From the NCBI GenBank assembly GCA_039621445.1, contig CP154954.1, positions 24,006,954 through 24,070,953 on the forward strand: DNA of 64,000 bases, in the 5' to 3' direction. This DNA comes from Euglena gracilis (Eukaryota). Position 1 is the stretch's first letter; each line of letters opens with the position of its first letter. Shown here piece by piece: positions 15,057 through 42,400 of this stretch. The translations under genes and the position numbers were made by a program. The notes under the pieces are model-generated. The model had not been told where the DNA came from, did not search any database, and saw only the letters and a program-made list of their open reading frames with translations.

Positions 15057-15068
15057 CTCCCCTTCCTC
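15057..15068 (-). promoter_or_regulatory. Polypurine tract of element A
   Basis: Minus strand GAGGAAGGGGAG directly before the 3' LTR. Confidence 0.85.
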
Positions 15069-21200: not shown

Positions 21201-21479
21201 TTGATGATCTCGTCCCGCAGCTGCCGCGCCAAGGGATGGTCGACGTCGTCTTCTGTCTCCACTACCCCTCGCACCGCCTTCGCCGCTTCTTCGGCCTCCT
21301 TCAGCATCATCGCCACCTCTCGGACTGCAGCCTCGTCCGTGGTCAGCTGCCGCATCTTCTTCACCGTGGAGAGGTAGCCGTCCAGCTCGTCTTCGTCTTC
21401 ATCGCCATCTTCCTCCTTCTTCTCTTCGTCTCCACGCCGCCTCAGGATCCACTTGGGGTCCGCGTGGAGCTGCAAGGTG

Positions 21480-21830
21480 TCGCGCCATGGCTGGACATCC
21501 AGCCGGTTCTCCCGGAGCCACGGATACCCCAGAATCAAATCCGTGCTGATGCAGCCGTCGTACGCCACCACCTTCGTCGTCCACGTCCTCGGTCTCCGCT
21601 CCTCGTCGTCGGTCTGGGCCGCGAAGGACAGCTTCAGCTCTGCTTCTCGTTGTCCTCCGGGTAGTGCTTCTCCGCTCACCGTGCGCAGCACCAAGGGTCT
21701 TGTTGCCGCGTGGAACACCGACTCCGGGAACAGCTCCTTCTTCACGAGGGAGGTCTGCGCCCCCGTATCGATCAAGGCTTTCGCCTGGATCTTCATCCCG
21801 CCTGCCTCCACCTCCACGTCCATCAGCAGC
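21480..21830 (-). CDS. Aspartic protease domain (element A Pol)
   Basis: ALIDTGAQTS ... DLILGYPWL. Confidence 0.9.
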
Positions 21831-21964
21831 TGGTAGCACCCCCCACGGTGCTCCATCCGGCCGACCGTGAACGGCCGGTTCGGGAGGTGCTGCCACGGCC
21901 GCACCACCACCTTCCGCACCTTCTTCGCCTCCTCCGCCGCCGCCACTTCTTCCCGTGCCTTCTC

Positions 21965-22576
21965 CCCCAGGCACAGGTACCGCACCACCCCCTCCGGGAT
22001 GCGGTAGGCCTCCTCCCTTGTGCACCTGCGCTCGCCGCCACTGCCTCCCAGCTGCAGCCGATGTCGTCGTACGCCGTCTGGTCCTTCCACCATGCTGCCG
22101 CACTTCCCACCACAGATGACGTCGTCCAGCTCCTTCGCCATCGCATCGCTGACCCAGAAACGGGTCGGCTTGCGATACCCGTATTCCGCGAAGCGGCAGT
22201 AGTCGATATCCACGTACCGCACTCCGCGCAGGACTCGTCGCCACCGCAGCAAGCCGAACCTCGGGTTTTCAATCCACCACCGCGTAGGCGCCAAGTACTC
22301 CACCAGCTCCCTCGTGGCCTTCACCACCGCGTCCGCCATGCGGAGCCTCCTCTTGCGGGTGGTGAGGGCTGCGGAGTACTCGGTACAGGGCGGGGACGCC
22401 GCGATGACCTCGAAGTAGCCGGGAGCGTACTGTTCCCAGTACCTCCACTTCCTCACGTCGGCCACGATGTCCGGCTTCCACTTCTCGTCCCAGTCCACGC
22501 TGATCACCTTGAAGCCCATCTTCTCCAGCGCTCTTCTGACACTGCCCGTTCCGGAGAACAGGTCCAGCGCCCATCT
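21965..22576 (-). CDS. C5-cytosine DNA methyltransferase domain at the N-terminus of element A Pol
   Basis: Motif I LDLFSGTG, II VISVD, III ADV, IV SPPC (catalytic Cys at 22385-22387), VI ENP, VIII-like GYRKPTRFW, C-terminal YRIP; uninterrupted and in frame with protease and RT. Confidence 0.92.
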
Positions 22577-23086
22577 TTCCTTCTCTTCCTTTGCCGCCTT
22601 CTTCACCGGCTCTTTCTTCTCCTTCTTCGCCGGTGCTTTCTTCACCTCCTTCGCCGGTGCTTGTCTTTCTTGTGGTGGTGTCTTGTGGAGACTTGGTGAT
22701 GCCTTCGGTGATGACGTTGTCGGTGTTGTTGATGGCGATGACGTCGATGCTGTCTTCGTTGCCGATGCCGTCGGCGTTGATGTGGTCGATGATGTCTTCG
22801 TTGCCGACGCCGTCGGCGTTGATGAGGGCGATGATGTCACCTTCGCCTTCGGCACGCTCGGTGATGTTGATGGGGACGATGGTGTCGGCTTCGCCTTCGA
22901 CACCTGCCGTAGGCAGGGTCTCTCCCCTTCCTTTGGAGACTTCCTGCCTCTTCTCTTTCTTTGGACCAGCCGCCATCCTTCTTCTTCATACTCCACCGCT
23001 CTTACCAGCCTCGTCCCTGGTGCGGATGTCAGCTGGGGGGTTGACTGCCGGTCCAGGCCCTTCCCCTCGGGACCTGGACGGCCCCG

Positions 23087-25779
23087 TCATTGCTGCGTCG
23101 ATGTCGTCCCGGCCGCTTCTCCTTTGCCGGAACCTTTCTCGCCGCCTTTGCCTTTCCCCTTACCCTTGCCTTTGCCTTTTCCACCATCTTTCCCCTTGGC
23201 TTCGCCGCCTTTGCCGGTCCATCCTTCATTCCACGGCTGCTGGTTGCCTTTGCCTCGGCCAGCCCAGCCTTGGGCATCGTTGGAGTCCTTGGTCTCGTCC
23301 ACCTTCTTCGCTTCTCCTTCCTTTTCTTTCTTCACCGCTTCCTTCTTCACTTCCTTGATGTTGGACTCCTCCTGGACTCCTTGATTGGCCTTGGTGTCGG
23401 TCTCGTCATCTTCATCTTCGACATCCACTTCCCGCTGCCATCTTGTGGGTGCCGCCGGTTTGCGGTGGGCCGGCTCGGGGTCGCCCATGGTGGCGGCCCG
23501 CTGGTCCACCCTCAGCCACCGCACCATGAGGTCGTTGACTTGGGTGGCGGTGAACTCCACGGTGTCCGGGGCCACCCGGACCTCCACCAGACAGCTTCTG
23601 CCGGTCGTACACCACCTTGATGGCCGCCCGGTGGTCATCGTCCGCCGAGACCACCTTGATTCTTCTGCCTTGACGATCCACTTTCCTCGGCCCGACGCCC
23701 GTCTCTCCACCACCATCTCCGTCGCCTCCGCCACCGTCACATCCTCCGGTAGGCCTCCAGGACCAGCGCCGCGTGGTCACGGAGCCGATCGTCTCCATCG
23801 GCCAGCCGCTTCCTCCATGGCTGACCCAGCTGGTCCACCACCAGGCGGGCTAGCTCCACGTCCGTCATGTCCCCGATATGCATCGCCAGCGCCTTGGCGT
23901 TGGCGAAGTACTCCCGCCACTCGCGCTCCATCAGCTTGCCCCGCGTCACCACCTTGAGGTGACGGAGCTTCCTTCGTAGTGCTTCTCGGTCGTCTCCACC
24001 CAGCTCCAGGTCCAGCCTCGCCCACAGCTCCTCGAACGGCATCTCGGGGTAGGTCTCCACCATCAGGCTCGATGTGCAACGCCGTCGGCTGGGTCCACCG
24101 CTGGTGTGGCCGCAGTCGCAGCGGCACCGCACTGCGCCTCGCTGAGGAGGGGGCCATCCCCTCCACCTCGCGGAGGTGGCGAACGCCACCGCCGCCTCCA
24201 TTGGGGGACGGCCTCGGCGTTACCCGAGCCGGTTCGGTGCCTCCCCCAGCGCATCCAGAGGTGACGGTGGACTTGGACTCGGACAGACTGGGGCAGCCCC
24301 CAACGGCAGGGTGGGCTTGGACTTCTCGGATGGCGGTCCCGCTTGCGGGTGCGGGCACGCTCGCCCTCGCACGCTGGGGGCGGCGGTGCTGGCGGGTCGC
24401 GATGCCGGTGCATATGGATGCGACGACAGCGCGGACTGCTGCACTTGCGCGCGGGACGGTTGCGGATGGGATGGTGCACGTTGGGCCGCGGAGGACGACG
24501 GTTGACGCTGGGACACGGACAGCGGCTCTGCTCGGATGACTGCGGTGCTCGGTCGCCGGGGAAATGCATATGCGGATTGCGGCATGGATATCCCTTCCCT
24601 TGCCGGGCGCGCGGTGGTTGACGATGAGGACCGCTCAGCCGGGGCTCGGGCCGCCCCCGCCGAAGCAGGCTGGGGGGCAGACTGGCAGGGATCGGCTGCC
24701 CTTCGGGTTGGCGGCGTGGTCTGAGCCGCCGAGGACACCGGGGGTCCCCCGGCTGGGCGGAGACCGGACATCTTGACAGACCACTGCTTGATCTCCTCCT
24801 TCGCCATCTGAATCTCCCTGAACAGCGCCGTCACCACTTGGTCCACTTCCCGGAGGGCCTTCTCCAAGTACACCCTGCACTTGCCCTCCAACTCCACGGA
24901 AATCCGGTCGGCCAGCTTGTTGAAATACTGTACCTGCAACGCCGGGATCTCGGTCTTGGAGTTGAGCTCCATCCGCTGCAGTCGCTCCTCCATCTGCCGC
25001 ACCACCGTGGCGATCTCCTCCCGCGTCACCATGGCTCCCCGGAGACGGGCCACCTCCACTGCCGTTTCCGGGTCCACCACCCGGGCCGCACCCTCGCCGG
25101 GGCCGGCACGCACCATCGCCGTCAAGCCTTGCACCTCTGCCTCGCGGCATCGGTGCTCAGCCTGCACGGCGGCGATTGCTTGGGCCGCCTCATCCGCCGC
25201 CTTTCGGGCGGCCGCCTTGGCTTGCGCCACTTGGCCCTCGAGCCGTCCGTGCTGGGCTTGGATGGTCTCCATGAACTGCGCGATGACCTTGCCTTGCCCC
25301 TCCGCCACTTGCCGATAGGCCGCCGCGGACGCATCCTTCGTGGCCTTGATCTCCTTGTCCATCTCCTCCAGCGCCGCGGTGGGCCAGTCATCCCACATCT
25401 CCCGGGTGCGGTTGCCCAGGAGGTCGAGCTGGGCCACCACCTGCCCGAGACTCGCCTCCACGGCGTCGATGCGGCTCGTCAGCCACACCGCCACCTCCTC
25501 CGACACCCCGGGATACTCGTCCTGCATGGGCTGGTCTTGTACCGGGACTTCATCCCCGGCACCCATCTCCTCCTGGTACATCTCGGGGGCCATATCTTCC
25601 TCGTATCCCTCACCTGCGGGCTCCGCCTCGTCGTACATCTCGAGGGTCTGCTCGTACGTCTCCTCTGCCTGGTCATACTCCACACCCGCCGCGTCCTCGT
25701 CCATCTCATCCACAATCCTTGGCATCTTGAGCGGCCGGTGGGACGATGAGGCTTCGGAAAAGGGGTTCGTTCCCCCCAC
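23087..25779 (-). pseudogene. gag: gag-like region of element A (acidic and coiled-coil N-terminus, helical core, GK-rich basic tail); frameshifted
   Basis: ORFs 24220..25779, 23737..24201 and 23087..23740 lie between PBS and pol; FEELWARLDLE helical segment; GKGKGK tail; no CCHC knuckle seen. Confidence 0.7.
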
Positions 25780-26340
25780 ACCCTTTGATCCCCCTTGCGG
25801 CTCCCTCTGGGGGTGGTGGTGGGGGAGAACAGCAGCGCCGCTCCCGCCGCGGCCAGCAGCGGGAAGCGGGCCCGCAGCGGCGTGGCGTCCCGCGGGGACT
25901 CCAGCTCCGGCAGCTGGAGCGGCACCAGCGCGAACGCCGCCGCGGTCGCCGCCGCGGACGCCGCCGCGGACCCCCCCGGGGACGGCGTGGCTGCTGGGGT
26001 GGTGCGCAGGGAGTGGGACAGGTACGAGGGTGGGGATGGGGTGGACAGGATGGGAAATGTGAGCTGGAGTGGGAATGGGAGCTGGGGGTTTGGGCTTATC
26101 GCCTTTTCTTGAGCGGGGCTAGGTGGGGAAATGGGGGATTCTTTTTCTGCTGTGCACGCTGAGGGGGACTGAGCAGCGGCATGCGTGTGCGGGGGATTGG
26201 GATTGGGTATGGGGCGGTCTTTTTCATTTGGGGGAGTCCCATGGTGGGGGACACCCACCACCGGGGCGGGGTGAGCCTGGGGAGCCGGATCCATCTTGTC
26301 GGTGTGGTTTGTTCCCAGGAAATTTTGTTCTGTGAAAAAC

Positions 26341-26351
26341 CTCTGCTACCA
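26341..26351 (-). promoter_or_regulatory. Primer binding site (initiator tRNA-Met) of element A, overlapping the LTR by 1 nt
   Basis: Minus strand TGGTAGCAGAG; its first T is the last base of the LTR. Confidence 0.88.
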
Positions 26352-26989
26352 GTTTCCCGAATGGTGTTGTTTTTGCCCAGCCTTCACTCCCGGGGGTCCG
26401 TGAGGGGGTACCGGCGGGGTGGGGGGTAGGCGCGATGGGCTCTGGGGAGAGGGGTAGGTTCGGGATACTCCCCTTCCCACGTAGGATTTTTTCCCGGGGA
26501 CCGAAGGCCCTCCTTTTTGGGGAGTGGTTGGAGGGGGGAGTCCGGCTTGGCGTCCCTTCCGGCAGTGGGGGGGTTTAGGAAAAGGCCTGGTTAGCCTCCC
26601 CTAGGCTTCAGATACCCCAGCACCAACACCTTTTTGGCTTGTACTGCTCTCCTGCGCCAGCAGATAGCCAATCTTTTTTGTAATCTTTTGCTTGCTCCGC
26701 CCTTGGGATTTTGATTTTCTTGAACTTTTGCACTTTCTTGGCTCCAGTGCCTTTCCTTGAATTCCCTTGAAATTCCTTGAAAATTGATATAATTTGACCT
26801 TGGTCTTGATTCAGCAGGCACAATCTTGAATTGAAACCATAGGTAAGAAAGAGGGAGCCTGCAGTAAAAAACAGAACAGTTAGAGAGCGGTTTGCGCTAT
26901 TTTGATGCTGAATTAGCGCAGTGGTTCGCTATATACAACAGCAGGCTGTAATAGTGGCAATAGAAGGTGCAGCGGCCGGTCCGCCAACT
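26351..26989 (-). repeat. 5' LTR of element A
   Basis: Direct repeat of 14418-15056. Confidence 0.95.
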
Positions 26990-26993
26990 GGAT

Positions 26994-28530
26994 GGCACGC
27001 GACCAATTGCAGCTGGGGAATGCCTGCGCCGATTGGTGGGCAAATATTTGATGAGGCACCCAAACATCAGGGACCGCCTTAAAGAACTGCAGCCACTACA
27101 ATGCGGTGTAGGGGTCCAGGGGGCATGTGAACTCATTGCTATGGGACTGCAGCAAGAAGTAAATCACCTGCACATGCAACAGGACAGCACCTGGTCTTTG
27201 TTACAGGTAGATTTCAGCAATGCTTTTAATTGCGTAAAAACAAAGACAGTCCTTGCTGAAGTGCCTAAACGCTGCCCGGAGGCGTACGTTTGGTTCGAGA
27301 GTTGCTACGCCGAACACAGCCCGCTCTTTTGTGGGTCATCACACCTTCGGGGTGCCTCTGGCGTACAACAAGGGGACCCTTGTGGCCCAGCCGGATTCGC
27401 CTTGGCGTTGCAATCTCTCGTCGAGTCCTTGCAAGACGTGGTGCCACTGCAATTGTGGTATTTGGATGATGGACACATCCTGGGAACCCTCCCACAATTA
27501 CATGCAGCAATTACAGAAATTCAACGACAGGGGACGCTACTAGGCATACACCTCAACGCAAAAAAATGCCGCCTGTGGGGCCCTGCAGCAACAGAAGCCA
27601 ATCGTGCTGAAATGCCGCCAAACAGCCCACTTCGTGCAGTCCCAATCGTGAACTACTCCCCTAATTCTGGTGTACGGGCCCTGGGAATCTCGGTATGCCA
27701 TCCACAAAGCGGTGGCTTTGCGGGGGAAGTGTGGGCTGAACGTGCAACAGGTGTGCAGAAAGCTTGCCGGGCCCTTTTGAACCTGCCGCAAGCCCATATT
27801 CAGTTCTGTCTCTTACGAACGTGCCTAGATGCATGCAAAGTTAATGACCTCGTGCGTGCAACAGAACTGGGGCAGGCAAATGACGCATGTGCTCTGTTGA
27901 CCAAAGAAATCAGGAACACAATGAGCAACATTGTTGGATCCCCAATCGATGACAACCAATGGGCTCAGGCCACCCTACCCGTGCGTCATGGCGGACTCGG
28001 AATTCGGGACCCATCACTGGAACGTCTCCCAGCACGTATATCCGGCATTGTGACGTTTGTCAGCAATGGCAGACGCACCCTGGGCCTGGCAGACCGAGGA
28101 GTACCGAAAGACACTGCGGAGTTCCTGTCCTCTGCCAACTCCATCCTCGAAGGAACTCCCCCAACGCAAACATGGGCCGCGGATGTATCACTGCTGAACG
28201 AAGCCCAAAGCCCTCACATTCAACAGAAGTGGTGGGGTGAATGCTTTGCGAAACAACGACAAAAAGTATTATCCTCTAACCTTCACGGTCAAGACGCCGT
28301 CCGGTTCGCAAGCCAACAGCGGCCCCACGCAATGGCCTGGGCTTCTGTCACACCATCCTCTGGACTGAAAACATTGGTCGCTTCTGCCGAATTCAAAGGA
28401 TTTCTAAAGTGGTCACTGGGAGCACCAGTTTGTCCACAACGGGATCACGTGCCCACGCTGCACCAAGCCAATGGACAACCTGGGTAATCACCTTGTATGC
28501 TGCAGCTCAATGGATCACGCGGCGACATGT
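26994..28530 (+). pseudogene. 3' half of CRE-like RT and the CCHC knuckle preceding the endonuclease
   Basis: RPIAAGECLRRL, QVDFSNAFN, GVQQGDPCGP, WYLDDG, LPVRHGGLGIR; shifted-frame CPRCTKPMDNLGNHLVCC at 28450-28503. The endonuclease core beyond is degraded or unrecognisable. Confidence 0.92.
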
Positions 28531-30504
28531 GCATCATTTGTGTTCCACTGGCACATGATGCTGGGTTTACTGCACAATCCAGGAGAACACGAAGAATTCC
28601 AATGGTCCTGCTGTCACTGCAACGAAGGATGTCACAGTGATGTATGCGCGCTCTCACACACACCATGGTGACCAGTGGCCACACACCGCAACTTTGACTG
28701 AATGACTAACAGTATGACGAAGAGAAGGAAAAATTCAAATATGACGCCACATGGGGGGATGGGATGGACCTGGACATTCCATTGTTGTGCCTAGGCTAGG
28801 CTGAACTAAGCAACAAAACGTCAAGGAAAAACTTCAACATGCAACGCCACATTGGGAGAAACGCATGTTGACGCGGCGAGAAGCAAAGAATGGGATATTG
28901 CACAAAGACGCAGACACAAAACAGTACAACACGACACCACCCTAACACAACACACGCTAACCATCCACACACACACCCACCACACACCACCACACAGAAC
29001 ACAACGAAACAGAAAAAAAACACAACCACCAACCATAAAAAAAAAAAAACAAGCAAATCACACCTTGCAACGAATGGACCAAGTCTACAAAGACGTCCAA
29101 ACCCTTACCTCACCGAAAACAGAGCCTTCCCTGCGCCAACTCTCCAAAACCAAAACTTGTCGCAGCCACAACCTCAACACCCAACAGTCCCCATGGCCGT
29201 TCCATTGAACCTTCCCTGCCGCTGTACACTTTCCTCTCACACTCGCTATCCCCCCTCCGAACTGTGCCCTTCACCGCCGTTCTACTTCACCCTCGCCTCT
29301 CCCCCCTCCCACCTTGAGAACTTGCTATGTGCATTACTCTCACCCGCACAGGACTTCGGCTCGGAGTGATCCTCTTGAGTTTCAAAAAAACTTCCCCTCA
29401 GCCTGCACCCCTCTCACGACACTTGAAGCTTCCCGCCCTTCGCCTTCCGGGTTTCCTGGGAACCGGATGACACCCTCAGCCATTACCTTATCCACGGGGT
29501 CTCCCCATCTGTGCATAGCCTTCCCCCTCCTACACTTCAAATCCAGTAGGCTGCGCCACTGGTCGGTGGATTCGGTTCGCCCCACCACCGTCTTTGAGGA
29601 TGCTGGGTTTCGGGGGGTTATTATTATAACGGCCAGAGGCAATTATTGATTTGGGACACCCGGGTGCTTGTGTAACAGAAAGTGTAAACAGGCATCATAC
29701 TCTCTCTGTAGCGACACAAACAAGAGTATGGACGATCCCGAACCAGACGATCGTCGAGACCGGGGTAAACGAGGCCCGCCACAAGAACGACCCCCTCCAG
29801 GACCCCCAGAGGGTCAACCGCCCACCAAGCGGGCCAAGCCGGCGCCGCCTACACAACGCGCCTTATCGGTGAGCTCCTCCTCACCCAGTTCGACGTCCTC
29901 TTCGTCAACATCATTGACATCATCCAGTACAGCCCCCAGCCCATCTGCCTCCTCCTCTTCCCCCTCCCTGGCTGCTGCTCCCTCCCAGGTTGAGCGCGCC
30001 ATGGGTATGGGTGCCGCCGGGGGGTACACCCTGCCAGGCGACCCTTGGGTCCCCCTGCCAGCCAGCACCCCCAGCTGACCCCTGGCATCCCCTGCAAAAC
30101 CCAACTGCCAGCTGCAGCATATCAAGTTGTCCCTCAACAGGTGAAGCCTCCCAGCCACCGTGCCCCTAAGGGTCCCTCTGGCCCTCCCCTACAGGCTGCC
30201 CCCTCCCCCATCAGGCCCCCCTGTCCCATCAGGCCAAGGCCCACAGACAGCCCCAGTCCAAGGCCCCCCTGCCCCCCCCCCAGGCCAAGGCCCACAGACC
30301 ACCCTTGTCCTTCCCACCAGCTGCCTCTTCCACTGGGACAGTACCAGCACCTGTGCCCCAGAGGATCTGGAAAGATGCCAGGGAACCACTGAGTGGTCGA
30401 CATCTGCGAGAAGTCCCCTCAGTTTCAGGTGATTTTTTTGTTCCACAGGTCAAAACCCTATGGATCTACCCCCTCAGATCCTGTGTGGGCCCTGTGGGGT
30501 CCAC

Positions 30505-31950
30505 CTGTGGATCACCCCAGGAGCCCCCCAGCTACTCCACAGGGCACTCCCAGAAGCCCTCCCCCTTCATAGCACGTGAATATTACCGCGGCCTGCGCCT
30601 GGAGTTTCTCCAGCAGTGGGTAATACTTCCACTGGATTCCCAGTGCTCTGATGGAATACATGTGCGTGAAGATTTCCTTCAGCTGTGCTACGAACGTTTC
30701 GTCGTCGGCACATGTATTCATACAGTCGATGTAGGTCAGACCGTTTCGGTCGGTAAAAATCCCAAAGTTCTGGCAGGGGTATCCCAACCAGAACCACAGC
30801 TCCCAGAAACCGGACATCTGGTCCAGGACGACTTCATCCGAATGAGGGCATCCCTTAAACGCATGGAGTTCGGCACAGTAGAAAAATCGTTTGCAGTGAT
30901 TGTACATACGATTATGCACCACTTCGAGCACCGCTTCCGGTGGTCGGTGGATCACGTTGCCTGCACGTGTAAACTTATGGAGATCCTCGTCGATGTTCGA
31001 CCAGATCTCCTCAAGGTAATCGAATACCACGGCAACGTCATAGTCCTTTGTTTTCGAAGGTTCGGCGGCTTTTCCGCCTTTTGCTGCTGGGGGTCCGGCA
31101 GATTTTCCGCCTTTGCCTGGAGCTGGCCATGCGGCTTTTCCGCCTTTGCCAGGTGGGGCTTTGCCACCTTTCTCATGGCCTTTTCCTTTCCCCTTACCCT
31201 TCCTTGCCTTTTCATTTACTCTTACCCTTCGAGTTAGACAGCCATTCGAATGTCGCCCAGTAATCCCAGTATTCTGTGTCTTCCGCAGTATATACCGGGT
31301 AAGTCACGGATTCCGTGCTGGGCGTCCGAGCAAATTCCTGTTCAGCGTCACCACCATTCAAGTAAACCGGTGCGACCGGGGGTGGTCGGGTTTCCCGACG
31401 TACCCGTTCTGCCGTCACATCTGGCGCGGGCGAAGTTTCCTCGTCAGCGTCGACGTACATCGCCGTGGGCGGATTTTCCGACCTAGGCGAGCGGCGCTGT
31501 GGCTGCGGCGTCAGATTTTCCGGGCCGCGGTCACGCTTGCCGGCGGCAGAGCTTGTGGGTCGTGCCGATGGCGCTTCCGCCACAGCAACACCCCGCTGTC
31601 CCGCATGTTGACTGGATCGTGAGGGAGCTGGGACTCCGGTGAGAGCCGTCACAGCAGCATCATACTGCTGGCGCTCTTCCATCGTCATTTCCGCCCGGGC
31701 AGGGTATCCCTGTCCGGCGGAAACAGGGGGCTGACGTGCGATTTGTCTCTGGATCGTCACAGCATATTCACACTGTTGACGCTCCTCCTCGGTATCGAAC
31801 GGCCGACCAGTCCACGGGTTGACGGGTTTATCCCGTACCTGTGGGACCGGCGCCGTACGAGGCGCTGCCGCGGCTTCCCGCGGACGAGCGCTCCGGGCAC
31901 TGTCAGACGTCGAGGGAGGGTTTCCTTCCGCGTGGCGTCTTGGCAGAGGG
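30505..31950 (-). pseudogene. Remnant of a family-B ORF3 homolog
   Basis: GFWELWFWLGYPCQNFGIFTD and KRDRGPENLTPQP match GFWELWFWLGYPCQNWGLFSD and KRDRTTENLTPQP in ORF 44597..47764. Confidence 0.85.
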
Positions 31951-31968
31951 TCAGGTATGGTATGGTGG

Positions 31969-34644
31969 GGTCGCTGAGCTCTTATCTCTTTAGAGTAAGA
32001 GCGAAGCTTACCACCGGGGCCGGAGGGGGTCGGGCCCCCCCCCCCCCCCCCGGCCGCGCCCCCCCGCGCCCCCCCCCCCCGCCCCCCCCTGAGTAGGTCC
32101 GGGCCCCCGAGGATTATCGATGTGATTGGATTTCGTGGCCCCCAAAGTGAATGGCCTCTAGGTTAGGGGACGACCCCTAGTTTCTCCAGAGCCCTTAGGT
32201 TACCCGCAGCTCCCCGCCAGTCCGGAGATATGGCCCGAGCAAAAAAGTTGTCTGCCGTTTTTTTTTCTGGGGATATTTCAGGGTCATTTTGGGGTCAAAA
32301 AATCGAAAAATTTAAAAATATCTCGAAAACGCCGCGGAGTTGCAAAAAAGTAAAGAGGACGTCATTCCTCAACTTTGGGAGCCCAATCGATCGCTATGCG
32401 CGGTTTGGGACGACTCCCCGCCTAGCCCGAGAATACGGCTGTTTTGGGGTTTTGGGCCAGTTTTGCCAGTTTCGGCCATTTTGGGCCCGTTCGGGGCCCG
32501 AAACCGTAATTTGCCCGTATCTCGTGCTAGACGGGAGTTGGAACCCAAACCAGGGGGTCAATCATTAGGTTTAGGGGGGGGGTTGACCGTTTTTTGGGGT
32601 TCCCGGGGTCTGGTTGTGCCATTTTGGGCCATTTTTGGGTATTCGGGGACCCCTGCGGGGGTTCGAGGGCCGTCGGGCTGGGGGTCCAAAAATCGAAAAA
32701 TTCAAAATATCTCGAAAACGCCGCGGAGTTGAGGAAAAGTGATGGCGACCTCATTTGACGACCTTGGAACGCCTGATCGATCCCTATGCGCGCTTTGGGC
32801 CAACTCCTCGCCTAGCCCGAGATACGGCCGTTTTGCGGCTTTTGGGCCAGTTTGGCCAGTTCTGGCTGTTTTGGGGCCCGAAACCGTAAATTGGCCGTAT
32901 CTCGGGCTACACGTGGAGTTGGGACCCAAATCAGGGGGTCAACCATTGGTTTAAGGGGAGGTTTTGACCGTATTTTGGGGTTCACGGGGCCTGGTTGTGC
33001 GATTTTGTGCCAGTTTTGAGCCACTTGGGCGATTTTGGGCCAGTTTTGGCTGTTCGGGGACCCCACCGGGCGGCGTGAGGGCGGCTGGGCGATGGGGGGT
33101 CGGGTGGCAGGTCGGGACCCAAAATTTTGAAAACATTTTTTTCGCTCAAAAATACTTTTTTTCACTTCAGAACATCAAAAAAGTGTTTTTGAGAGAGAAA
33201 AAATTTTCCGACCCGGACCCCCCCCCGTGGCTGCGGCCCACCCCACTGGCCGGTGGACTTAGCCATTTTTGGGTCAAAAAGTCAAAAAAATTCAAATTTT
33301 TTTTTGCCCAAAACCATGTTTTTTGACCTCCCGGACCCGAAAAAAGTGTTCTCGACCCAAAAATGAACGTTTTTCGACCCGCCAGCGCCCCGTTTTGGGC
33401 CGCCAACCCATTGACTTTGGGTCAAAACCGGGCCAAAAAAGTCGAAAAAAATCGAAACATTTTTTTTGCCTGAAACGACGTTTTTTGGCCTCCCGGACCC
33501 AGAAAAACTGTTTTTGAGCCGAAAACGAGCGTTTTTAGACCATCAGTGCCCCATTTTGGTACGCCAACCCATTGACTTTCGGTCAAAACCCGGTCAAAAA
33601 AGTCGAAAAAAAATTGAAAAATTTTTTTTGCCCGAAACGCTGTTTTTTGGGCCTCCAGAACCCAGAAAACCCGTTTTTTTAGCCAAAAATGAGCGATTTT
33701 TGACCCCTTGGCCCCTCGTTTCGGGCCCAAAACCCTTGCATTTCAGTCCAAAGAGCTCCACGGAGTGACTGGGCCGCGCCGCCTTGCCGCTGGCCGTGCC
33801 GGGCCGCCGGGCTGCCGGGCCGCCGGCCGGGCCGGGCCGCCAGCCGGGCCGGGCCGGGCTGGGCCGCCGGGCCGCCGAGCCGGGCCGGGCCGGGTCGCCG
33901 AGCCGCGGTGGTCTTCCAAAGAGCTCAGCTCTACGTCACACCCTGGTCGCTGAGCTCTTATCTCTTTAGAGTAAGAGCGAAGCTTACCACCGGGGCCGGA
34001 GACCCCCCCCGACACCCCCCCCCCCCCCACCCCCACCCCTCCCCTGAGTAGGCTCGGGCACCCCAGGATTATCGATGTGACCTGATTTCCGGACCCGAGA
34101 AGTTAATAGCCTATGGGTTAGGAGAGGATCCCTAGTTTCTCCAGAGCCCTCAATTTGCCCGCAACTCCCCGCCAGTCCGGAGATATGGCTTGAGCAAAAA
34201 AGTTGTCTACCGTTTTTTTCCAAAGAAATTTTGTTGGACCGGCAAAAGGGCCATTTTTGGGGGTCAAAAAATGGAAAAAATTAAAATATGTCGAAAACGC
34301 TGGGGAGTTGAGAAAAAGTAAAGAGTACCTCATTCCACAACTTTGGGAGGCGGACGGACGGACGGACGGACGGCTGGTGAAAAAAGCGAAGGTCCGGACG
34401 GACGGCTGACCTTGTGGGCTTGGTCCAGACGGCTGAAGAAGATGCACTTGGTCCAGCTAGCCGGCTGGCCGGCTGGCCGGCTGGCCGGCTGGCCGGCTAG
34501 CCGGGGTCTTTGGAAGCGCAGGCTAAGGGCAAGAAAGGTCGCGTAGATCTCCAAACGGAAGTAACGGTCCAGATCTCCACACAACATGTCAGATCTTTTG
34601 TACGATGTCCGCTGAGCTGCCCCGTACTGCAAGGTTCGTATCAG
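31969..34644. mobile_element. Tandem non-autonomous repeat units with a conserved hairpin junction (possibly Helentron-associated, DINE-1/HINE-like)
   Basis: Motif GTCGCTGAGCTCTTATCTCTTTAGAGTAAGAGCGAAGCTTACCACCGGGGCCGGAG at 31970 and 33946; A/T-tract sub-repeats; (GGAC)n at ~34352; no coding signal. Class is an inference. Confidence 0.5.
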
Positions 34645-34969
34645 TGTGTACCAGGCGTATGCTTCTGTCCCCTTCCGTTGAGGAAGTTAGGATCGAAGCA
34701 GATCCTATTAGGATCTCCTAATGGGTGCCCCTTCTCTCTCCACAGGTGGTATTCTTTTATATTCTTCTTTATACCTTTTCCTTCCTTTCCCTCGGACCGG
34801 ACTTGGTTATCCAGTCCGTCCTCCCTGCATTGCCCTGTGCTTTGCTTCTTGGGAAGTGGGAAAAGGGATTTTCTGTTACTCTGATTTTCAGTTCCCAAGT
34901 AGGTGCGCCAAGGCGAAAGCGAAGGCTTTTGGGAATTGGGAAAGGGGAATTGGGAATCAGACGTACACT
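34645..34969 (+). repeat. 5' LTR of B1
   Basis: Direct repeat of 61034-61357; TGTGTAC...GTACACT termini. Confidence 0.93.
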
Positions 34970-35114
34970 TGGTAGCAGATTGGTTACGATCCTATACATA
35001 CTTCACAGAAAGAAAGGCTACCAGGTATTACACTTGGTAGCAGATTAGGTCACGATCCTACACATACAGCCCGTTTAGAAAGAAACGCTACCAGGTATTA
35101 CACTTGGTAGCAGA
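34970..35114 (+). promoter_or_regulatory. Three tandem initiator-tRNA primer binding sites
   Basis: TACACT-TGGTAGCAGA with the PBS at 34970, 35035 and 35105. Confidence 0.85.
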
Positions 35115-35319
35115 TTGGTTCGATCCTACGCTGACTGGCAGCGGAGGGCCCCTGCACCGTTTATTACACGGTCGCAGCGTCAGCTCCCGGCTTCTAGTCA
35201 ACGTCTAAGCAGACGAGCAGGCTCCGGAAGGCTCTGTACGGTATTACCTGTTACAACCCTTCTGGTGCCAGCACAACTGCTTAGTTTTGTGGGTTTTTGC
35301 TGTTTTTGTCATCAGAAAG

Positions 35320-38300
35320 ATGCAAAGCACAGGCCCCAACCATCAATTCAATTATGCCTTATTACAGGCATCATTGCAAGACATTGACCAAGAAAATGGG
35401 GATTGGAAGCTTTTATGTGAAAGTGCTTCCAGTTCCCACGCCGATGAGGCACAATTGGTTCAATTGTCACAATTGCAACACTTGTCATCATTGACAGTGG
35501 TCGGCGATGAGCCCTCCACATCATTGGCTTCAGAGGCTAATGCGGCCTCTTCCGCACTCACCTTGCCACAACGGGGGTATTCGCCTCTGTCTGCGGCAAT
35601 GGTGCAGCTGCGCACACCGGAGAGACCCGTGGTGATTCCGCCACTGGGCTTCTCTGGTGATGGTGGGCTGGAAACCCCGTGTTTCTTTCAACCACCACCC
35701 GTTCTTCCACCGGCAAGCCCTTACAGAGCTTTGCCACCACCACCCGATCTTGGGTGCTATCCCGCACTACCTTGGCAACCGGAGACTCGCCTAGTGGTAC
35801 CAGAATTCTCTGGTACGTCCCAACCCATGGATGGCTATGGGAAGAGCACTGGGGAGCTCCTCACTGCTGAGGATGTACAGGATATGGTTGCTCGGCTTCC
35901 AGGGGATCACCCCCTTGTGAGGCAGTTCAACCATGTGCAACAATGCGTTGCAGATTGTGCAACCGCACTCAACAAAGTGCTCCAGTTTGATGAGGACAAC
36001 CAAAAACATGTCTTCACCAAGCTGGAATACTGCTGGAATTACTTGCAGGAAGTTGGCAAATATTGCCAGAGGAATTTCGAAAGTGCGGGTATTGACCTTG
36101 CAAACTTTCGGGAAACCTTTGACAAAATGTGCCAACAACTCCCGCAAAACTTCCGGCAAATTGGTGAATGCATGCATGAAGCGGAAACCCGGAATGACTC
36201 CAAGTTTCTGCACTTGCATGACTCACTACAATATTTATCGGGACAAATGGAGTCCTTTTTATCCGCGTTGTCGCATTTGCAACAACAGTTGCATGCACGA
36301 GATTCCTCGTCTGCAACATCCAGCAGTGGTGGACTTGTGTCTATGGACCATTTCACCACATTGTCCGCAACTTTCCATGAATCGCAACACCGCATTATGC
36401 AGTTGTGCGATGAAACGGAAAAGTTTCGGCAATTTCAGTCACAAGCCAACGAGAATTTTGCTCCCCACACGTATCTGCGGCAGTTGGAGGAGCGACTTTC
36501 CTGTTTGGAGCAGAAAACCTGGTATTGTGACGCACATCGGGTTGGTTTATCCAATCTGAGCGCGAAAGTCGCGGAAGTAGCACAACGGCAGGATTCCCTG
36601 CAGTTGCAGTTGCAATCCGACATTGGCGGGATTAACTCGGCCATTGCGGGGTTGCAACAAAGCTATTCCGCACCTTCCCACCGAGTTCCGGACATTAGCG
36701 GTATTCAGACTGCTATTGGGGAACTCCAGACCCGGTATGCATCGGTGTCTACCAAAGTAACGGAAATGCAGTCTCTACCTGCAGGTTCCAGGACCCAGAT
36801 TACCGAGAACCCTGATTTCAAGGCATTTTATGACAACATGCTCACTAACAATCGGGAAACCTTGCAAGATTTCTGCAACAGCCTATTACGGCTTGAGGAA
36901 TCGGTGAATCGGAATGCCCGATCCACGCAAGGTGAGATTACCAGGTTGGATGAGCGAATTTCCGCGTTGTTGGATAAGCCACAATTCGGAAATTTGCCCG
37001 TGGGTACCACAACCGCGTTGTCGGATAACCCTGCACCGGTTGCACCCACCCCCACACCAACCAAGACATCACCTTTGCAGATTCTCTCAAATGCTGTAAA
37101 AGCATTAATGGGACAACTCCAATTATTGCGTAAGTCTCACGGGAAACTTGTCCAAGATGTTACCGGAATTTCCGAAAGGATTCCACACTTGGATGACTTT
37201 TCCCGTTACCGCAAGCGTATTCGCGCTTTGGAGGATGAAGTTGACCGTATTTGCGGCCAACTCCAACTCGTTGAGCATTTGGAGCAAAGTGTGCATGACG
37301 TGACTGTGGGTTTGGATAATGTGTCCAACCAACAGCGGGTTTCACACCGCAATTCGGCAGTATGCATTGCCGAAGATGCGCCAAATGTTCCAGAGTCGCG
37401 TTTCCATAACCCGGCTCTGGGTGCACATGCACCACCACCACCCGTGTCCCGAGTGTCACAATCCGCGATTCCGCGAACTGTGCCACCATTGGCCTTTTCC
37501 AAAACCCAAACCCAGTTTTCGGATGAATTTCCCATTACGGGAACCGAATTTTCGGAAAACACGGCGATTCCGCCAAGTCTCCACCAAGAAATCCATCATT
37601 CCATGCTTGTGCGTGGAATGAGCCAAACCCGTACACCGGGAGTGGGTCACATGTTGCATGCGTGACATACCCCCACACCGGAGAGTCCCCCTATTACGGG
37701 TGACCAACAGGGTTTGCGACAAGATTTCCGGTACCAGGATTCACCTTCACCAGAAATCTCGCGATTCCGACAAGAATCCGGAAAGGATACGCTTGGTGCT
37801 CGAGCGTACCCAGGCCCAAAACCGCGGAATACCACCGAGGGTCATTGGGTTTCTCAGAAAGACTTCAAGGGCACCATCGCAATCGCGAATAAGGTGAAAC
37901 CCCAATGGGACGGTGATCCAACCACATGGAGACAGTTTTTCCGGGACTGGGAGTATTACTGGGCATTGAAAGGGCCGACCCAGGACACAAACCCGGAGGT
38001 GATCAAGAAGGAATTCATCGATTGTCTCCCTAGGGATGAGAAGGAGCGCGCGCGACAACTTGTCATTCGCTACCGCGGTTCCTTCGATGACCTGGTAGAG
38101 CAATACGCTTCCACCAGTTCAAGTTTGGTCGCTAGGATTACCCTGGAGACCAAGTGGCGGCAATGCGCCCCACCCGATCGGAAGTGGAAGTCCATTGACC
38201 TTTGGTATGCCAAATGGTTAGGACTTGCCGCTGAAGTGGATGAACTCAGTGAAAAGCAAATGCGCGAACAGTTCGATGCTGTTCTCATGCATTTCACGCC

Positions 38301-39325
38301 TAGCCTCATCAAGGATATCCACCGTGAGGAGTTGGCGAGTCACCCATTGACTCTTGACCAGCGCTGGAACTACGTTTCCAAGCAATTGAAGCTATCACAG
38401 CTTCTTGGTCAGATTCAATCCGCGTATAACGCACACCCAACCGCTGGATTACCGGCTGGTTCGGTGAACGCATTGCAAAAATCACCGGTTTCACCCACTT
38501 CACCAACCACGGGATCGAAAACGCGATACCCGCGTTCTTCGGACCAAGCCACGAATAAAGTGTGCTTTTTGTGCAACAAATCGGGACATATGTCTCGGGA
38601 ATGTCCTAATCCTGAAGTGCGTAAGCGTATTCAGAGTCCGCGAGGCTCGACCTCATCACGGGGTTCGGGTTCCTCCGCGTTTTCACGCCAATCGGGCAAT
38701 TCACGGTCATCGGGTCCCCGTTCCGGTGGTATTAGCCCCCGGATCCCGTTCCGCGATGAGCGGAAACACGGTACCCCTCGGGGTAGGTCACCCGGTGCCC
38801 CGGCCAAGAAGCGTGATTCTCATCGCGAGACATCGCGATCGCGTTCGCGAAGCGGATCATCCTCTTCGCGATCCTCATCGGGAAAACCCCGATACACCGG
38901 TCATGGTCGACGGGATATCCGGTCACCACGACGGTTTGACGGGAAATCGGGAAACCGATCCCCCCGTTACCCAGAATCGCGACACAAATCTCGGTGTTCG
39001 CTTTGTGGATCACCACTCATCCAAATGTCCGCGTTCTCGTTCTCCCCTCCCTGGCCAACGTCATCGCGGTATGAATCGCGGTGACAAGGGTCACTCCTCC
39101 AACCGCCATAAAGTCGGTTTCAAGATATCTTGTTTGGAGGATGACACCCCGGCTTCGGGCAGGGAGGGGGATGAGACCACGGATACCGACTTCGATGAGG
39201 CCCGCATGGCGGGGCGCACGTGGAAATCTGTTTATACCTCTAAAAGGCCCATAGCCGGCTATTCGGCCGGTTCGGTACCTGGAGTAGGGGAGATCGAGGT
39301 CCGAGGGCACGGACCTCTGGGCTGA
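35320..39325 (+). pseudogene. gag: gag of B1 (long coiled coil, capsid-like region, two CCHC knuckles, SR-rich tail)
   Basis: KPQWDGDPTTWRQF; CFLCNKSGHMSREC; in-frame TGA at 37663-37665 (CGA in sister copy); 8-bp deletion in the second knuckle relative to the sister copy. Confidence 0.88.
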
Positions 39326-39445
39326 TGAACAGATGGAGGTAGGACCTGATCAACCCTGCCCCCCCTGCCCATCTGCCTTTGTGGTCGGTACGCGGAAAAT
39401 TTTCGGGTCCCCCTCCCCCCTCTCCAACTTTCCGCTCGTAATGTT

Positions 39446-42400
39446 GTGAAAAGTAGGAAAGGGTTCATGGGAAAGCTGGCAAGAAATATATTTTCGCCAG
39501 ACCCTTCACTTTGCTTACCACCCATGGAACTTTTGGTCCAAGCGGAAATCAGAATCCAAAACTTTTGTGCAAAAGTCAAAATTCTCATTGACACTGGTTG
39601 TCGCATTGCACTACTTTTTGGTTCGGTTGATACCAACCCCCCTCTTGGTGAAAGCCAAGAAGCCGATCAAAATTACGACGGCAGACAACACCCCCATGTG
39701 CAGTGGTGACTTGGGATGCTTTTTGGACATTGTCCTACCCCTCATCCCCAAGCACCACTCACACCCCCCCCAACCGCAAAATTTTCCGGATACCTGGGGA
39801 TACGAATCTGGAATCCATGGTTCTGACGTAATTCTGGGATACCCCTTTTTACGTCAGCACCGGCTGGTAGTGGATTGCCACTCCCACGGTTTGCGCACAT
39901 CACCATTCTCTTCATTGTCCCCCAAACCTTCATCACAGGTGGCGTCAACCGCGACGACCACCAATTTTTCCACACCGTTTTCAAAAACTTTTACCCCGTT
40001 ACCAACCACACCAACCAACGTTTTCCACACCGGGTGTACCGAGAAAGTTCACCCCCTGCCCATTGACACACCAACTTCCGTTCCCCATGAGGCAGGGCAA
40101 GCGAGTAGCGGTACCCCCCTCGTTCCACTGGGTTACAAGACGAAAGCCCAAAGGCCTGAAGTTATAACGGTGTCGAGTAGTCGCCCAGCTGCACTAATAC
40201 CCCGTTTTCCACCAGATGTATCGCTTTCAGATACATCTGTACACCCCCCAGCAGCTACAAAAGCGCATCCCAACTTTTACACACACCCTCACCAGACCAA
40301 CATGCGCGACCAGGACACTTCCTTCCAATGTGTGCACTGTAGGAGAATTTCCGCCCAGCCAGATTTCGATTGTGGATGTTTAGTCCAAACACCAACACTA
40401 ATCCCGATTTCGTGTCACCATACACTTGGTTGCGGTTCGCAATGCACGACCGTACATCAAGTGCTCCAACAACGACGTATTGCCTTGTTGTTTGGGACCG
40501 CGAAATCCGTGTCACACACCTCCCCCACCTCCATCTGGCATGATATGGACTGGGTATGCACCCATCCAACCCATCAACCCTTGGGAATGCCCCTAGGGAG
40601 TGTGGATGACACACCCTTGACCTATGTTTGCGGATCCCTAAATTGCGTCACCAGTCTTCAACCCGCGAACCAGGTCAATAGATACGCGATGCGCGTATGG
40701 AACGCATTTAATTTTGGCCAATACCGTATTTTGGAGGAATGGTTCTCCAAAATCGCGGCTTTGGCTGATTCATTCGATTTGTCGTTGGAAATTGATGTGT
40801 TTTCATCAAAAGCGCATGCGCGCTTGTCGCGATATTGGTCGCGACATTCCAACGCGTTTCTGAAATTTTGGGGTGATACGGTGCTCTGGATGCACCCTCC
40901 CCCAAAACTTATCCCGGATGTGGTGGAGAAAATCCTCCGCGATGAAGCGCGAGGAGCTCTCCTCATACCCGTCAATCCGAATGCGGATTGGTTTCACCAA
41001 CTATTCGATGTGTGTTTTCATTGGTGGGATTTACCCGCTGATGTACCACTATTTGAGGATTTTTGTGGTATATTATTACCACCTGTAAAAGAAATCATTT
41101 TTCGCGTTTGTTTCTTCGACGCATTCGGAATATCCGATGTGCGTGTGCCAAGATGCCTTGGTACCAATGGGGATGCCACACCCTCAACGCAGATTTCTGC
41201 GGTCATTGAGAGTGCGGACCAACACCCCAAGTCTGCTGACTATTGTTCGCAAATTACTCGCGAATTTCATGGTGTTCTGGATAACCCAGTATACGCCTGC
41301 GACATCGACCCCGCGAGTCGCGGTCCATTCGGTGTTTGCAAAATCGAGCTCAAGGATGGCGCTAAATCCATGCACCGGAAATTCTTCCTTTGTTCGGGTG
41401 AACGCGAACAGGCTCTCAACGAGATGATTGAGAAGCTCATCCAGCGGAAGTGGATTATCCCTTCCAAGAGCGAATGGACATCACAAGCTTTTGTGGTGCC
41501 CAAACCCGCTGACCAGTCTGGTCAGAAGAAGTGGAGACTAGTGCTGGATTACCGGTACCTGAACTCCCAAACGAAGGATGACCCCTTCCCGTTACCGCTG
41601 ATCGAGGATTTGATCACCAGACAATCGGATAACCGGTTGTAGTCAATCTTTGATCTGGAAGACGGTTTCCATCAGATGCATTTGCAACCTGATTCGCAAC
41701 CGTGTACGGCATTCGTGACATCCAAAGGTGAGTAACAATGGACGGTACTCCCCATGGGTGTTAAGAATGGCCCAGCCATGTTTCAACGCATGATCCAGTG
41801 GGTTTTGCGCGATTTACCGTTTGCTCTGGTGTACATCGATGATGTACTGGTGGGAACCCAACCGCCATCCGCGAAATCGGGCGAGGACATCCTCGACCCG
41901 CATTATCACGATGTGCGCGCGGCGTTATCCGCGTTCCAAAAGCAACGTGCTTTTTGTGAAGGGTTCCAAAATGCACCTGTTTCGCAAACTTATTAAGTTT
42001 TTGCGGGCATATCCTGAGCAACGAGCAGCGTAAAGCCGCACCCAGTAAGATGGAGGCCATTAAGAAATGTACTCCTGAGGTCATTAAGACCTTAACGCAT
42101 TTAAAGGGATTTTTGGGATTAGCCCAATATTACGCGATTTACATGAAAGATTTCGCGAAAATCGCGGTACCCCTAACCCGACAACTCAAAAATCGGACAC
42201 CCGATAACGCAAAAGTCATTTGGGATGACCAAATGCGCGAGGCCTTGAATAAAATCAAGGACTTGCTGCTCGAGAACGTGGTTCTCGATATCGCGGATCC
42301 ATATAAACCGTATGTCCTGGAGGTCGACAGCAGCGATTACGCTGTTGGCGGAGTTCTTAGCCAGCATAATGCGGCGAATGAACTCCGACCTGTGGCTTTC

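Follow-up and report, generated by a model that had tools for sequence, protein, structure and literature searches.

Predicted DNA methyltransferase modules in the Gag-Pol of two chromovirus families at one Euglena gracilis locus

Introduction

Why would two neighbouring retrotransposons of one genome each carry a DNA methyltransferase-like domain inside Gag-Pol, and why would the two domains differ in kind? This question is raised by a stretch of 64,000 nucleotides of Euglena gracilis DNA (GenBank assembly GCA_039621445.1, contig CP154954.1, positions 24,006,954 to 24,070,953 of the forward strand), here called the window, in whose coordinates all positions are given. It contains element A, on the minus strand (-), with a domain resembling C5 cytosine DNA methyltransferases (DNMT), and element B, on the plus strand (+), with a domain resembling Dam methyltransferases (DAM). 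Chromoviruses are Ty3/gypsy elements with a C-terminal integrase chromodomain, and it is to these that we assign both elements.

An initial annotation of the window had taken the pair as a case of convergent capture of two chemically different methyltransferases, under recurrent selection by an undescribed host surveillance system based on methylation that such elements evade or exploit. We reach a different reading. The region probably contains two separate Ty3/gypsy chromovirus families, each represented by a dead copy, and both set within a large radiation of retrotransposons that have DNA methyltransferase modules in Gag-Pol.

Results

The methyltransferase domain of element A

The methyltransferase domain of element A (21959-22579, -; 207 amino acids) lies between gag and the aspartic protease (PR), within one uninterrupted open reading frame (ORF) of 767 amino acids that it shares with PR and the first part of the reverse transcriptase (RT). 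It has 215 relatives of near its own length at E<=1e-3, the best at 1.9e-84, and many of these are proteins of ~205 amino acids, aligned over 96% of the domain, that their source names 'site-specific DNA-cytosine methylase' or that carry a precomputed PF00145 assignment. In an alignment of 58 sequences the element A domain keeps all 22 invariant columns, a set that includes LxLFxG..S, Pro-Cys, Glu-Asn-Pro, K.T..W and C...C...H. The catalytic motifs of C5 methyltransferases are present as LDLFSGTGS, ASPPC, IENP and RKPTRFW, which we take to be motifs I (FxGxG-like), IV (Pro-Cys), VI (ENV-like) and VIII (RxR-like). A tiny segment containing Cys and His replaces the usual target-recognition domain.

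The AlphaFold2 model of this domain has a predicted local distance difference test score (pLDDT) of 93.9 and a predicted template-modelling score of 0.90. Foldseek gave 192 matches to it at E<=1e-3, and among the matches listed (to rank 49) all are C5 DNA methyltransferases, with DIM-2, DNMT3A/B/C, M.HaeIII, M.HhaI and MET1 at the top (E 4e-7 to 7e-6, query TM-score 0.48-0.59); the predicted fold is thus that of this enzyme class. A profile search of PDB sequences with the domain found C5 methyltransferases only, weakly, while the single-sequence search of the PDB and the comparison of the A2 profile with the PDB gave no match, and a search of the ESM Atlas with the DNMT-PR-RT ORF gave no usable one. 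By sequence and predicted fold, then, the domain is a real, minimal C5 cytosine methyltransferase of ~200 amino acids, and methyl transfer is its predicted activity.

The Dam-like domain of element B

The Dam-like (PF05869-type) domain of element B (~40653-41258, +) lies between PR and RT, and its catalytic tetrad, HPPP, is encoded at 40893-40904. An exhaustive HMMER search found 420 relatives at E<=1e-3 (best 2.4e-44). PF05869 is listed for seven of the nine long DAM relatives, and two of them score above the Pfam cut-off (P0138, 31.6; P0154, 29.5). The AlphaFold2 model of the element B domain (pLDDT 88.3) is confident over residues 11-160, and six near-invariant positions are kept: D50, F52, W75, P85, K95 and P108.

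Foldseek alone gave weak matches to this model (best E 3e-3), and a single-sequence search of the PDB returned matches at chance level only. Structural comparison with VIA-align gave Z scores of 10.6 for CAPAM, ~9 for KsgA/DIMT1, 8.8 for METTL5, 8.6 for T4 Dam and 8.4 for both M.TaqI and EcoDam. The best structural matches are therefore N6-adenine methyltransferases, and the model has the Rossmann fold of amino-methyltransferases. We read the domain as a real PF05869-like domain of the DIRS/phage type with a predicted amino-methyltransferase fold; the state of its catalytic tetrad is weighed in the Discussion.

Structure of element A

Element A (14418-26989, -; 12.6 kb) has the domain order gag-DNMT-PR-RT-RNaseH-IN-chromodomain, where IN is the integrase. 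Comparison of the window with itself identified its long terminal repeats (LTRs) as direct repeats of 639 bp with ends AGTT...AACT, the 5' LTR at 26351-26989 (-) and the 3' LTR at 14418-15056 (-). The two are 99.2% identical, with five differences, all of them transitions and two of the five at CpG. A target-site duplication (TSD) of 4 bp, GGAT/GGAT, flanks the LTRs at 14414-14417 and 26990-26993. A sequence like a primer-binding site (PBS), TGGTAGCAGAGG, adjoins the 5' LTR at 26340-26351 (-) and presumably matches initiator tRNA-Met; the purine tract GAGGAAGGGGAG (reverse complement of 15057-15068) adjoins the 3' LTR.

The gag-like ORF (24223-26118, -; 632 amino acids) has no Pfam match. The main pol frame (18698-24634, -) is open apart from TGA codons at 23777-9, 23087-9 and 20783-5. 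Pol runs through PR (21500-21829, -; Pfam RVP, E 0.002, with the motif LIDTGAQ at 21775) and RT with RNase H (19811-21094, -; Pfam RVT_1, RT_RNaseH and RT_RNaseH_2) to the integrase core (18033-18278, -; Pfam rve, 8.6e-11) and the chromodomain (17325-17426, -; Pfam Chromo, 2.8e-7), the last two being in a frame that differs from that of RT. With its direct LTR pair, short TSD, PR-RT-RNaseH-IN order and C-terminal chromodomain, element A is a Ty3/gypsy chromovirus. Reassignment of TGA as a sense codon was considered for the in-frame TGA codons and rejected in favour of CGA>TGA decay: the codon at 20783-5, the one of them situated in a conserved block, corresponds to Arg in seven of seven aligned relatives, and TGA terminates other ORFs.

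The target of the element A insertion was a long ORF that belongs to a third retroelement, X. By ORF coordinate arithmetic, removal of A together with one GGAT restores the X reading frame, in that 12840-14417 joins 26994-28484 to give 526+497 codons. The LTR pair, the TSD and the restored frame of X together indicate that element A is a complete, precise insertion. Retroelement X itself spans 9623-14417 and 26994-28487 (+), and its last ORF, once freed of A, carries RVT_1, with an RT extremely divergent from gypsy RTs; Pfam gave no match for the two ORFs upstream of it (10420-12873 and the N-terminal portion of 12840-14645).

The surroundings of A have also been duplicated. The segments 1-5749 and 10727-16466 are direct duplicates (98.5% identical, spacing 10,726 bp), and each holds the 3' part of X, the 3' LTR of A and 1.4 kb of the interior of A. 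A segment that already bore the A insertion was therefore duplicated, and one of the two copies was truncated. Base composition differs within the locus, G+C being 66% in A (14418-26989) and 51% in B (34645-44400); the high G+C of A gives long spurious ORFs on both of its strands.

Structure of element B

Element B begins at 34645 on the plus strand and has the domain order gag-PR-DAM-RT-RNaseH-IN-chromodomain. Its 5' LTR (34645-34967, +; 323 bp, TGT...ACA) has a copy, 97.5% identical, at 61034-61357. This LTR is followed by a PBS-like feature, TGGTAGCAGATTGG, annotated at 34970-34992 (+) as TGGTAGCAGATTGGTTACGATCC; a 45-bp unit that contains the PBS is repeated three times over 34942-35121. 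Gag (35209-39081, +) has one in-frame TGA, at 37663-5, and a zinc knuckle at ~38560-38610. An uninterrupted ORF of 730 amino acids (39450-41639, +) encodes the end of PR (39627-39866) together with the DAM domain and runs on into RT. The remainder of pol, from RT onward (41310-44399, +), has stops within RT and ends in a stop at 44397-9; it includes RNase H (~42221-42643, +), the integrase (43006-43797, +; rve and Integrase_H2C2) and the chromodomain (44211-44321, +), which an SH3-like domain adjoins at the end of pol. The PR-RT-RNaseH-IN order and the C-terminal chromodomain place B, too, among the Ty3/gypsy chromoviruses. A direct LTR pair with a short TSD was not found in this copy.

At the expected position of a direct 3' LTR there is an inverted copy of a B-type LTR unit (~49361-50299), which runs on into an adjoining segment of ~550 bp. 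This unit of ~850 bp, B-type LTR plus adjoining segment, occurs in three copies of mixed orientation, at 49361-50299, at 53273-54118 and, inverted, at 60551-61357. A second, deleted copy of the element, B2, lies on the minus strand (58094-60555 and 54409-55636), with a 91-bp satellite between its two parts; this array (55660-58143; ~27 units, ~90% alike) stands in for the whole pol region of B2. B and B2 are each flanked by inverted, not direct, LTR units, with opposite polarity. The copy of B is rearranged or truncated, and the B family may still have LTRs, as B2 ends in a direct-oriented unit. We considered a DIRS-like nature for B on account of the inverted terminal units and rejected it, given the DDE integrase of B and the opposite polarity of the units in B2. 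Pfam scans of the B ORFs found no recombinase family, and hence no tyrosine recombinase of the DIRS kind.

Two further ORFs, of 1055 and 467 amino acids, lie 3' of the B pol (44597-48954, +). The 1055-codon ORF (44597-47764, +) starts 200 bp past the pol stop; 44597-47761 matched no Pfam family, and within the length range searched it had no homologue at E<=1e-3. The 467-codon ORF that follows is rich in Pro, Ala and Gly, and its region is common to B2. Because the segment 47754-48992 is shared between B and B2, these ORFs probably belong to the B family.

Two distinct families

The RT sequences of A and B are 36% identical and fall in separate clades of the RT tree described below, and A and B are therefore distinct families. 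Both nevertheless have a common PBS start, TGGTAGCAGA, at 26340-26351 (-) in A and 34970-34992 (+) in B, which suggests that they use the same primer tRNA, presumably initiator tRNA-Met.

Much of what the initial annotation had described is borne out by this comparison. Its two families with different LTRs are seen in the repeats of 639 bp in A and 323 bp in B, between which self-BLAST found no LTR-to-LTR similarity. Its extent, 21965 to 41125, matches the edges of the two methyltransferase domains, which do lie at different positions in Pol as it had stated, between gag and PR in A and between PR and RT in B. Both pols end, as claimed, in a chromodomain above the Pfam cut-off of 25.1 bits (30.8 bits in A, 41 bits in B). 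Two statements survive in part. TSDs of different lengths had been assigned to the two elements; the 4-bp GGAT of A is present, and neither a TSD nor a 3' LTR was found for B. The assignment of a 5-methylcytosine (5mC) enzyme to A and a probable N6-methyladenine (6mA) enzyme to B agrees with the C5-type domain of the one and the Dam-like domain of the other, the 6mA label being weakened by the HPPP tetrad.

Relatives and history of the two modules

A search with the DNMT among long proteins found 51, for which precomputed Pfam assignments include RVT_1 in 20, PF05869 as well in eight and Chromo in two. By phmmer mapping, 44 of the 51 have PR and/or RT next to the DNMT. Besides DNMT-PR-RT, the order of A, these proteins have PR-DNMT-RT, DNMT-DAM-PR-RT, PR-DAM-DNMT-RT, PR-DNMT-RT-DAM, DAM-PR-DNMT and a C-terminal arrangement, RT...DNMT. 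Both modules occur together in up to nine relatives (eight by Pfam, eight by phmmer, nine in the union). The long DAM relatives are PR-DAM-RT proteins as in B, several of them PR-DAM-RT-RNaseH-IN polyproteins. Both architectures recur, DNMT-PR-RT in at least ten and PR-DAM-RT in at least nine independent database proteins. A dual-methylase element, with DAM and DNMT in one (EpiLTR), was absent from the 64-kb window, where a six-frame profile search found a single DNMT, that of A, and a single DAM, that of B.

A tree of RT segments of at least 150 amino acids (27 rows, quick search) assigns A to a clade made up of six DNMT-PR-RT rows, with a Shimodaira-Hasegawa-like approximate likelihood-ratio test (SH-aLRT) value of 100, and pairs B with P0124 (SH-aLRT 99); A and B are in separate starred clades. 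The RT of X has a branch length of 10 in this tree and is too divergent to root it. Along their lengths, B and P0124 are 78-86% identical in RT and 17-47% in the stretch from PR through the linker to DAM, with a sharp step near 41286. The profile of A against P0273, whose RT is 77% identical to that of A overall, is smoother than that of B (DNMT 51-68%, PR 60-68%, RT 80-92%).

The DNMT tree comprised 90 rows: 46 from retroelements (45 database proteins and A), 32 from viral loci (the first to offer at least 170 aligned residues) and 12 from loci of prokaryotic metagenome-assembled genomes (MAGs); shorter segments and all other viral loci were excluded, and no DNMT4 sequences were included. In this tree 43 retroelement rows (42 relatives and A) form one clade with SH-aLRT 100, irrespective of where the module lies in Pol and of the presence of a DAM. 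DNMTs of the C-terminal type (P0319, P0321, P0322) fall outside this main clade. A rooted tree was also made by quick search, with 12 partial segments of classical bacterial C5 methyltransferases as outgroup and 18 retroelement rows sampled; here the main retroelement clade (18 rows, SH-aLRT 99) nests among stand-alone viral forms.

Such viral forms are common in IMG/VR, where 358 of 576 pattern-matched stretches on viral contigs encode relatives of the minimal DNMT, and five of the best 80 loci are on GVMAG-named contigs. A major capsid gene of nucleocytoplasmic large DNA viruses (NCLDV) lies within 3 kb in two of the six viral loci sampled, while ribonucleotide reductase, MT-A70 or N6_N4_Mtase is nearby in three and one gave no match. 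Genomes of GTDB gave only about a dozen full-length matches, all of them in MAGs.

Because 43 retroelement DNMTs form one clade, both modules occur together in up to nine relatives, and B is a mosaic relative to P0124, the sequences point to a single capture event for each module, with shuffling or recombination among related chromoviruses afterwards, and not to repeated convergent capture. The source of the DNMT module was probably a virus. One may go further and suppose that the DNMT was taken a single time from a minimal C5 methylase of the giant-virus type, and not from a host DNMT, that it then moved to at least five places in Gag-Pol, and that recombination combined it with, or separated it from, the DIRS-type DAM; the DAM of the B lineage would meanwhile have lost its adenine-stacking pocket and now have a non-catalytic role, for example in binding DNA or a mark. 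We offer this fuller scenario tentatively, and as a whole it is somewhat doubtful.

Abundance and traces of methylation

Both families are clearly multi-copy. In 14 DNA runs of one organism, 59-67% of the sampled words of 17000-26990 are present. DNA run X1 yielded 327,606 contig pieces on 21500-41400, comprising 43,084 at >=99% identity, 96,804 at 95-99% and 187,718 at 90-95%; depth sums are not copy numbers here, and part of the X1 pieces belong to the abundant repeat 31460-34115. The B positions 39683 and 40476, upstream of the DAM, are each on 70-81 contigs of X1, and positions in the gag and LTR of A are each on 10-47. The DNMT of A is covered by three listed contigs at ~91-93% identity. 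The window itself gives a weak sign of CpG methylation, and the figures behind this are weighed in the Discussion.

The abundant repeat between the elements (31460-34115) is built of nested repeats of 162, 390 and ~1976 bp, with related pieces at 61791-62700, and it exceeds its neighbours in word depth by a factor of 2 to >100, both in the DNA run and in RNA-labelled runs. A tRNA-like gene at 61490-61563 (+), 130 bp downstream of the B-type LTR copy, is the sole Rfam/ARAGORN match; it scores 35.1 bits against the Rfam tRNA model, and ARAGORN gives it an undetermined type with the four-base anticodon gtga.

Discussion

The two elements fall inside a described kind of retroelement, of which they are a good example rather than a new discovery. 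Like chromoviruses in general, A and B have the PR-RT-RNaseH-IN order, a C-terminal chromodomain and a tRNA-type PBS starting with TGG; unlike other chromoviruses, they have an extra methyltransferase module upstream of RT. The DIRS1 group of retrotransposons reportedly carries a Dam-like 'MT' domain, as described by Goodwin and Poulter. B shares the PF05869-like domain family with that group, but DIRS elements use a tyrosine recombinase, whereas the integrase of B is of the DDE type (rve, H2C2) and is accompanied by a chromodomain. The domain of A aligns over its full length, at 30-40% identity, with the stand-alone viral C5 methylases of ~205 amino acids (IMG/VR loci L001-L080), with which it shares motifs I, IV (PC), VI (ENP) and VIII and the invariant C...C...H; the viral enzymes are free-standing genes near NCLDV capsid, ribonucleotide reductase and other methyltransferase genes, whereas that of A is part of a polyprotein.

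The closest published systems are those of a preprint of May 2026 (bioRxiv 10.64898/2026.05.21.726589), to the accessible part of which our comparisons apply. It reports DAM domains in non-DIRS LTR elements, many of them with chromodomains, derived from DIRS-type DAMs, as well as a mixed DAM-LTR/DIRS group of E. gracilis with signs of domain exchange. It also describes 'EpiLTRs', with DAM, DNMT and chromodomain, in E. gracilis and Cymbomonas, their DNMT being sister to DNMT4. In E. gracilis, it finds 5mC to be near-default at CG and 6mA to mark a subset of promoters, and it proposes that the elements make use of 6mA-permissive chromatin. Judged against that part of the preprint, A and B fit the E. 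gracilis elements by their architecture. B is Ty3/gypsy-like, with a chromodomain and a PF05869-type DAM, as in the DAM-LTRs and EpiLTRs, and the DNMT family of A co-occurs with DAM in up to nine database polyproteins of variable domain order and mosaic history, as in the EpiLTRs.

There are also differences from the elements as described in the accessible part of this preprint. Neither A nor B has both modules, and A is a DNMT-only element, a class that would escape a screen based on DAM. The tetrad of B is HPPP, compared with the conserved Asn-Pro-Pro plus aromatic residue of the preprint. The EpiLTR DNMT is placed as sister to DNMT4 there, whereas the nearest relatives in our tree, made without DNMT4 sequences, are viral mini-methylases. 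We found no description of a DNMT-only chromovirus of a euglenid in the literature searched.

DNMTs within retroelements are known from other lineages as well. De Mendoza et al. (2018; PMC5890265, in its accessible part) describe them inside DIRS, LINE and Copia elements, one of them methylating CG de novo, and propose that self-methylation of the complementary DNA (cDNA) makes it resemble a genome in which methylated CG is the default state. Element A is like SymbioDIRS-Dnmt3 and SymbioLINE-DNMT of Symbiodinium and the LTR element with Dnmt3 of Klebsormidium, as they appear there, in having a C5 methyltransferase inside Pol. Those DNMTs are host-derived Dnmt3-type or other enzymes in DIRS, LINE or Copia backbones, whereas A has a minimal enzyme of ~200 amino acids in a chromovirus backbone.

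A number of observations weigh against reading the region as copies of two chromovirus families with methyltransferase modules. Neither domain reaches its Pfam gathering score, PF00145 giving the A domain a weak 17.4 bits (cut-off 22) and Pfam Dam giving the B domain 21.4 bits (cut-off 28.1). Both copies are broken, A by three in-frame TGA codons and at least one frameshift, B by several stops and at least three frameshifts, and the activity of these copies can therefore not be inferred. A direct copy of the B LTR is absent from 44380-50400, where local alignment scores are <=22 and shuffled sequence reaches 24. The DNMT (X16, X18) and the DAM (X15, X16, X18) have contigs of RNA-labelled runs over them, which is no proof of transcription. 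The ratio of observed to expected CpG, 0.82 in A and 0.93 in B, shows no clear depletion, and transitions in CpG context are only ~2-fold enriched (42/141 against 15.5% CpG positions; 7/27 against 10.4%). The nesting of the retroelement DNMTs among viral forms involves unstarred nodes (SH-aLRT 86-93) and a partial outgroup, one row of which falls inside.

The catalytic tetrad of the B domain belongs on the same side. It reads HPPP, not NPPF, and departs from the pattern [DN]PP[FYW]. Of the 150 listed DAM relatives, 136 cover the tetrad columns; among these, 89 begin the tetrad with N, 27 with H and 13 with C, 88 have an aromatic residue at the fourth position, and 55 show [DNS]PP[FYW]. Only one of the 13 best matches to the B domain has the canonical tetrad, the other 12 having NPPI/V/L, HPPF, HPMF, YPPI, NPHY or HPPP; most of the closest relatives are without the canonical aromatic residue. 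P0133, the closest match in the DAM domain (73% identical over the matched stretches), has HPPP, and P0124, the closest RT relative, has NPHY. Finally, assays of eukaryotic DAMs in E. coli gave no 6mA, as reported in the accessible part of the preprint (bioRxiv 10.64898/2026.05.21.726589). Catalysis by DAM in the B lineage may thus be lost.

These same facts could be taken to mean that the modules are passengers without present function, the DAM of B in particular being a catalytically dead relic that is kept as a spacer or structural part of Pol. The HPPP of B and P0133, the NPHY of P0124 and the rarity of the canonical tetrad among the best matches would fit such a view, as would the low identity to P0124 in PR-DAM (17-47%) beside the high identity in RT (78-86%) and the negative heterologous assays of the preprint. 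Yet the fold of the B domain is confidently predicted and its six near-invariant positions are kept, and the ORF that encodes it is uninterrupted in a copy otherwise full of frameshifts. For A the passenger view is weak, with 22 of 22 invariant residues intact, and 6mA is higher on DAM-LTRs than on other LTRs, according to the accessible part of the preprint (bioRxiv 10.64898/2026.05.21.726589). We therefore regard it as unlikely that the modules are mere passengers. That the fusions are artefacts, whether nested insertions of unrelated methyltransferase genes or assembly chimeras, is a concern at a locus so heavily nested, with A inside X and B2 and the LTR units rearranged, and chimeric transposable elements in E. 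gracilis are warned of in the same part of the preprint. Each methyltransferase, however, lies in one uninterrupted ORF with PR and RT, the same two architectures recur in independent proteins, and both domains are covered by contigs of other runs, so that we give the artefact explanation almost no credence.

The proposal of the initial annotation, independent convergent capture of different methyltransferases under an undescribed methylation-based surveillance that the elements evade or exploit, has some points in its favour. The two modules are chemically different, sit at different Pol positions and belong to two RT clades. Retroelements with methyltransferase and chromodomain are numerous and, as the annotation had assumed, no one-offs, given 51 long DNMT proteins (44 with PR and/or RT), 420 DAM relatives and many X1 contigs; and a camouflage of the cDNA is discussed in the accessible part of PMC5890265. 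The phylogeny speaks against its convergence part, since the DNMT rows form one clade regardless of Pol position or DAM co-occurrence, some relatives have both modules, and the mosaic identity profile of B indicates recombination; convergent or recurrent capture does not hold up on this evidence. As for an undescribed surveillance system, no host factor was seen and nothing in the window or the searches pointed to one, the published models cover the same facts, and DAM-LTRs have been tied to the known AMT1/6mA system in the accessible part of the preprint (bioRxiv 10.64898/2026.05.21.726589), where the core idea of the annotation is already in print. We accordingly consider convergent capture under such surveillance quite improbable, and prefer two distinct chromovirus families whose modules were each captured once and then shuffled.

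With these families in mind, one may speculate on what the modules do. Published work and the integrity of the domains suggest that the methyltransferase modules would be made within Gag-Pol and freed by the protease of the element, and that the freed methylases would target the reverse-transcribed DNA of the element itself or the integration site. In A, methylation of CG could make a new copy resemble a host genome with default-methylated CGs, or could damp the activity of the element itself. In DAM elements generally, 6mA would favour permissive chromatin, whereas in the B lineage the DAM may no longer catalyse. The chromodomain would read histone methylation and thereby direct integration, as it does in other chromoviruses.

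The locus opens no new kind of system, and its contribution is modest. It adds a family with a DNMT only, akin to the dual-methylase elements; it points to a virus as the likely origin of the DNMT; and it shows, in the B lineage, a DAM whose pocket is degenerate. Such a degenerate pocket in one lineage bears on the failure of heterologous DAM assays reported in the accessible part of the preprint (bioRxiv 10.64898/2026.05.21.726589). When a retrotransposon writes DNA marks, silencer and silenced are no longer cleanly separated, and this locus of E. gracilis provides two annotated examples side by side.

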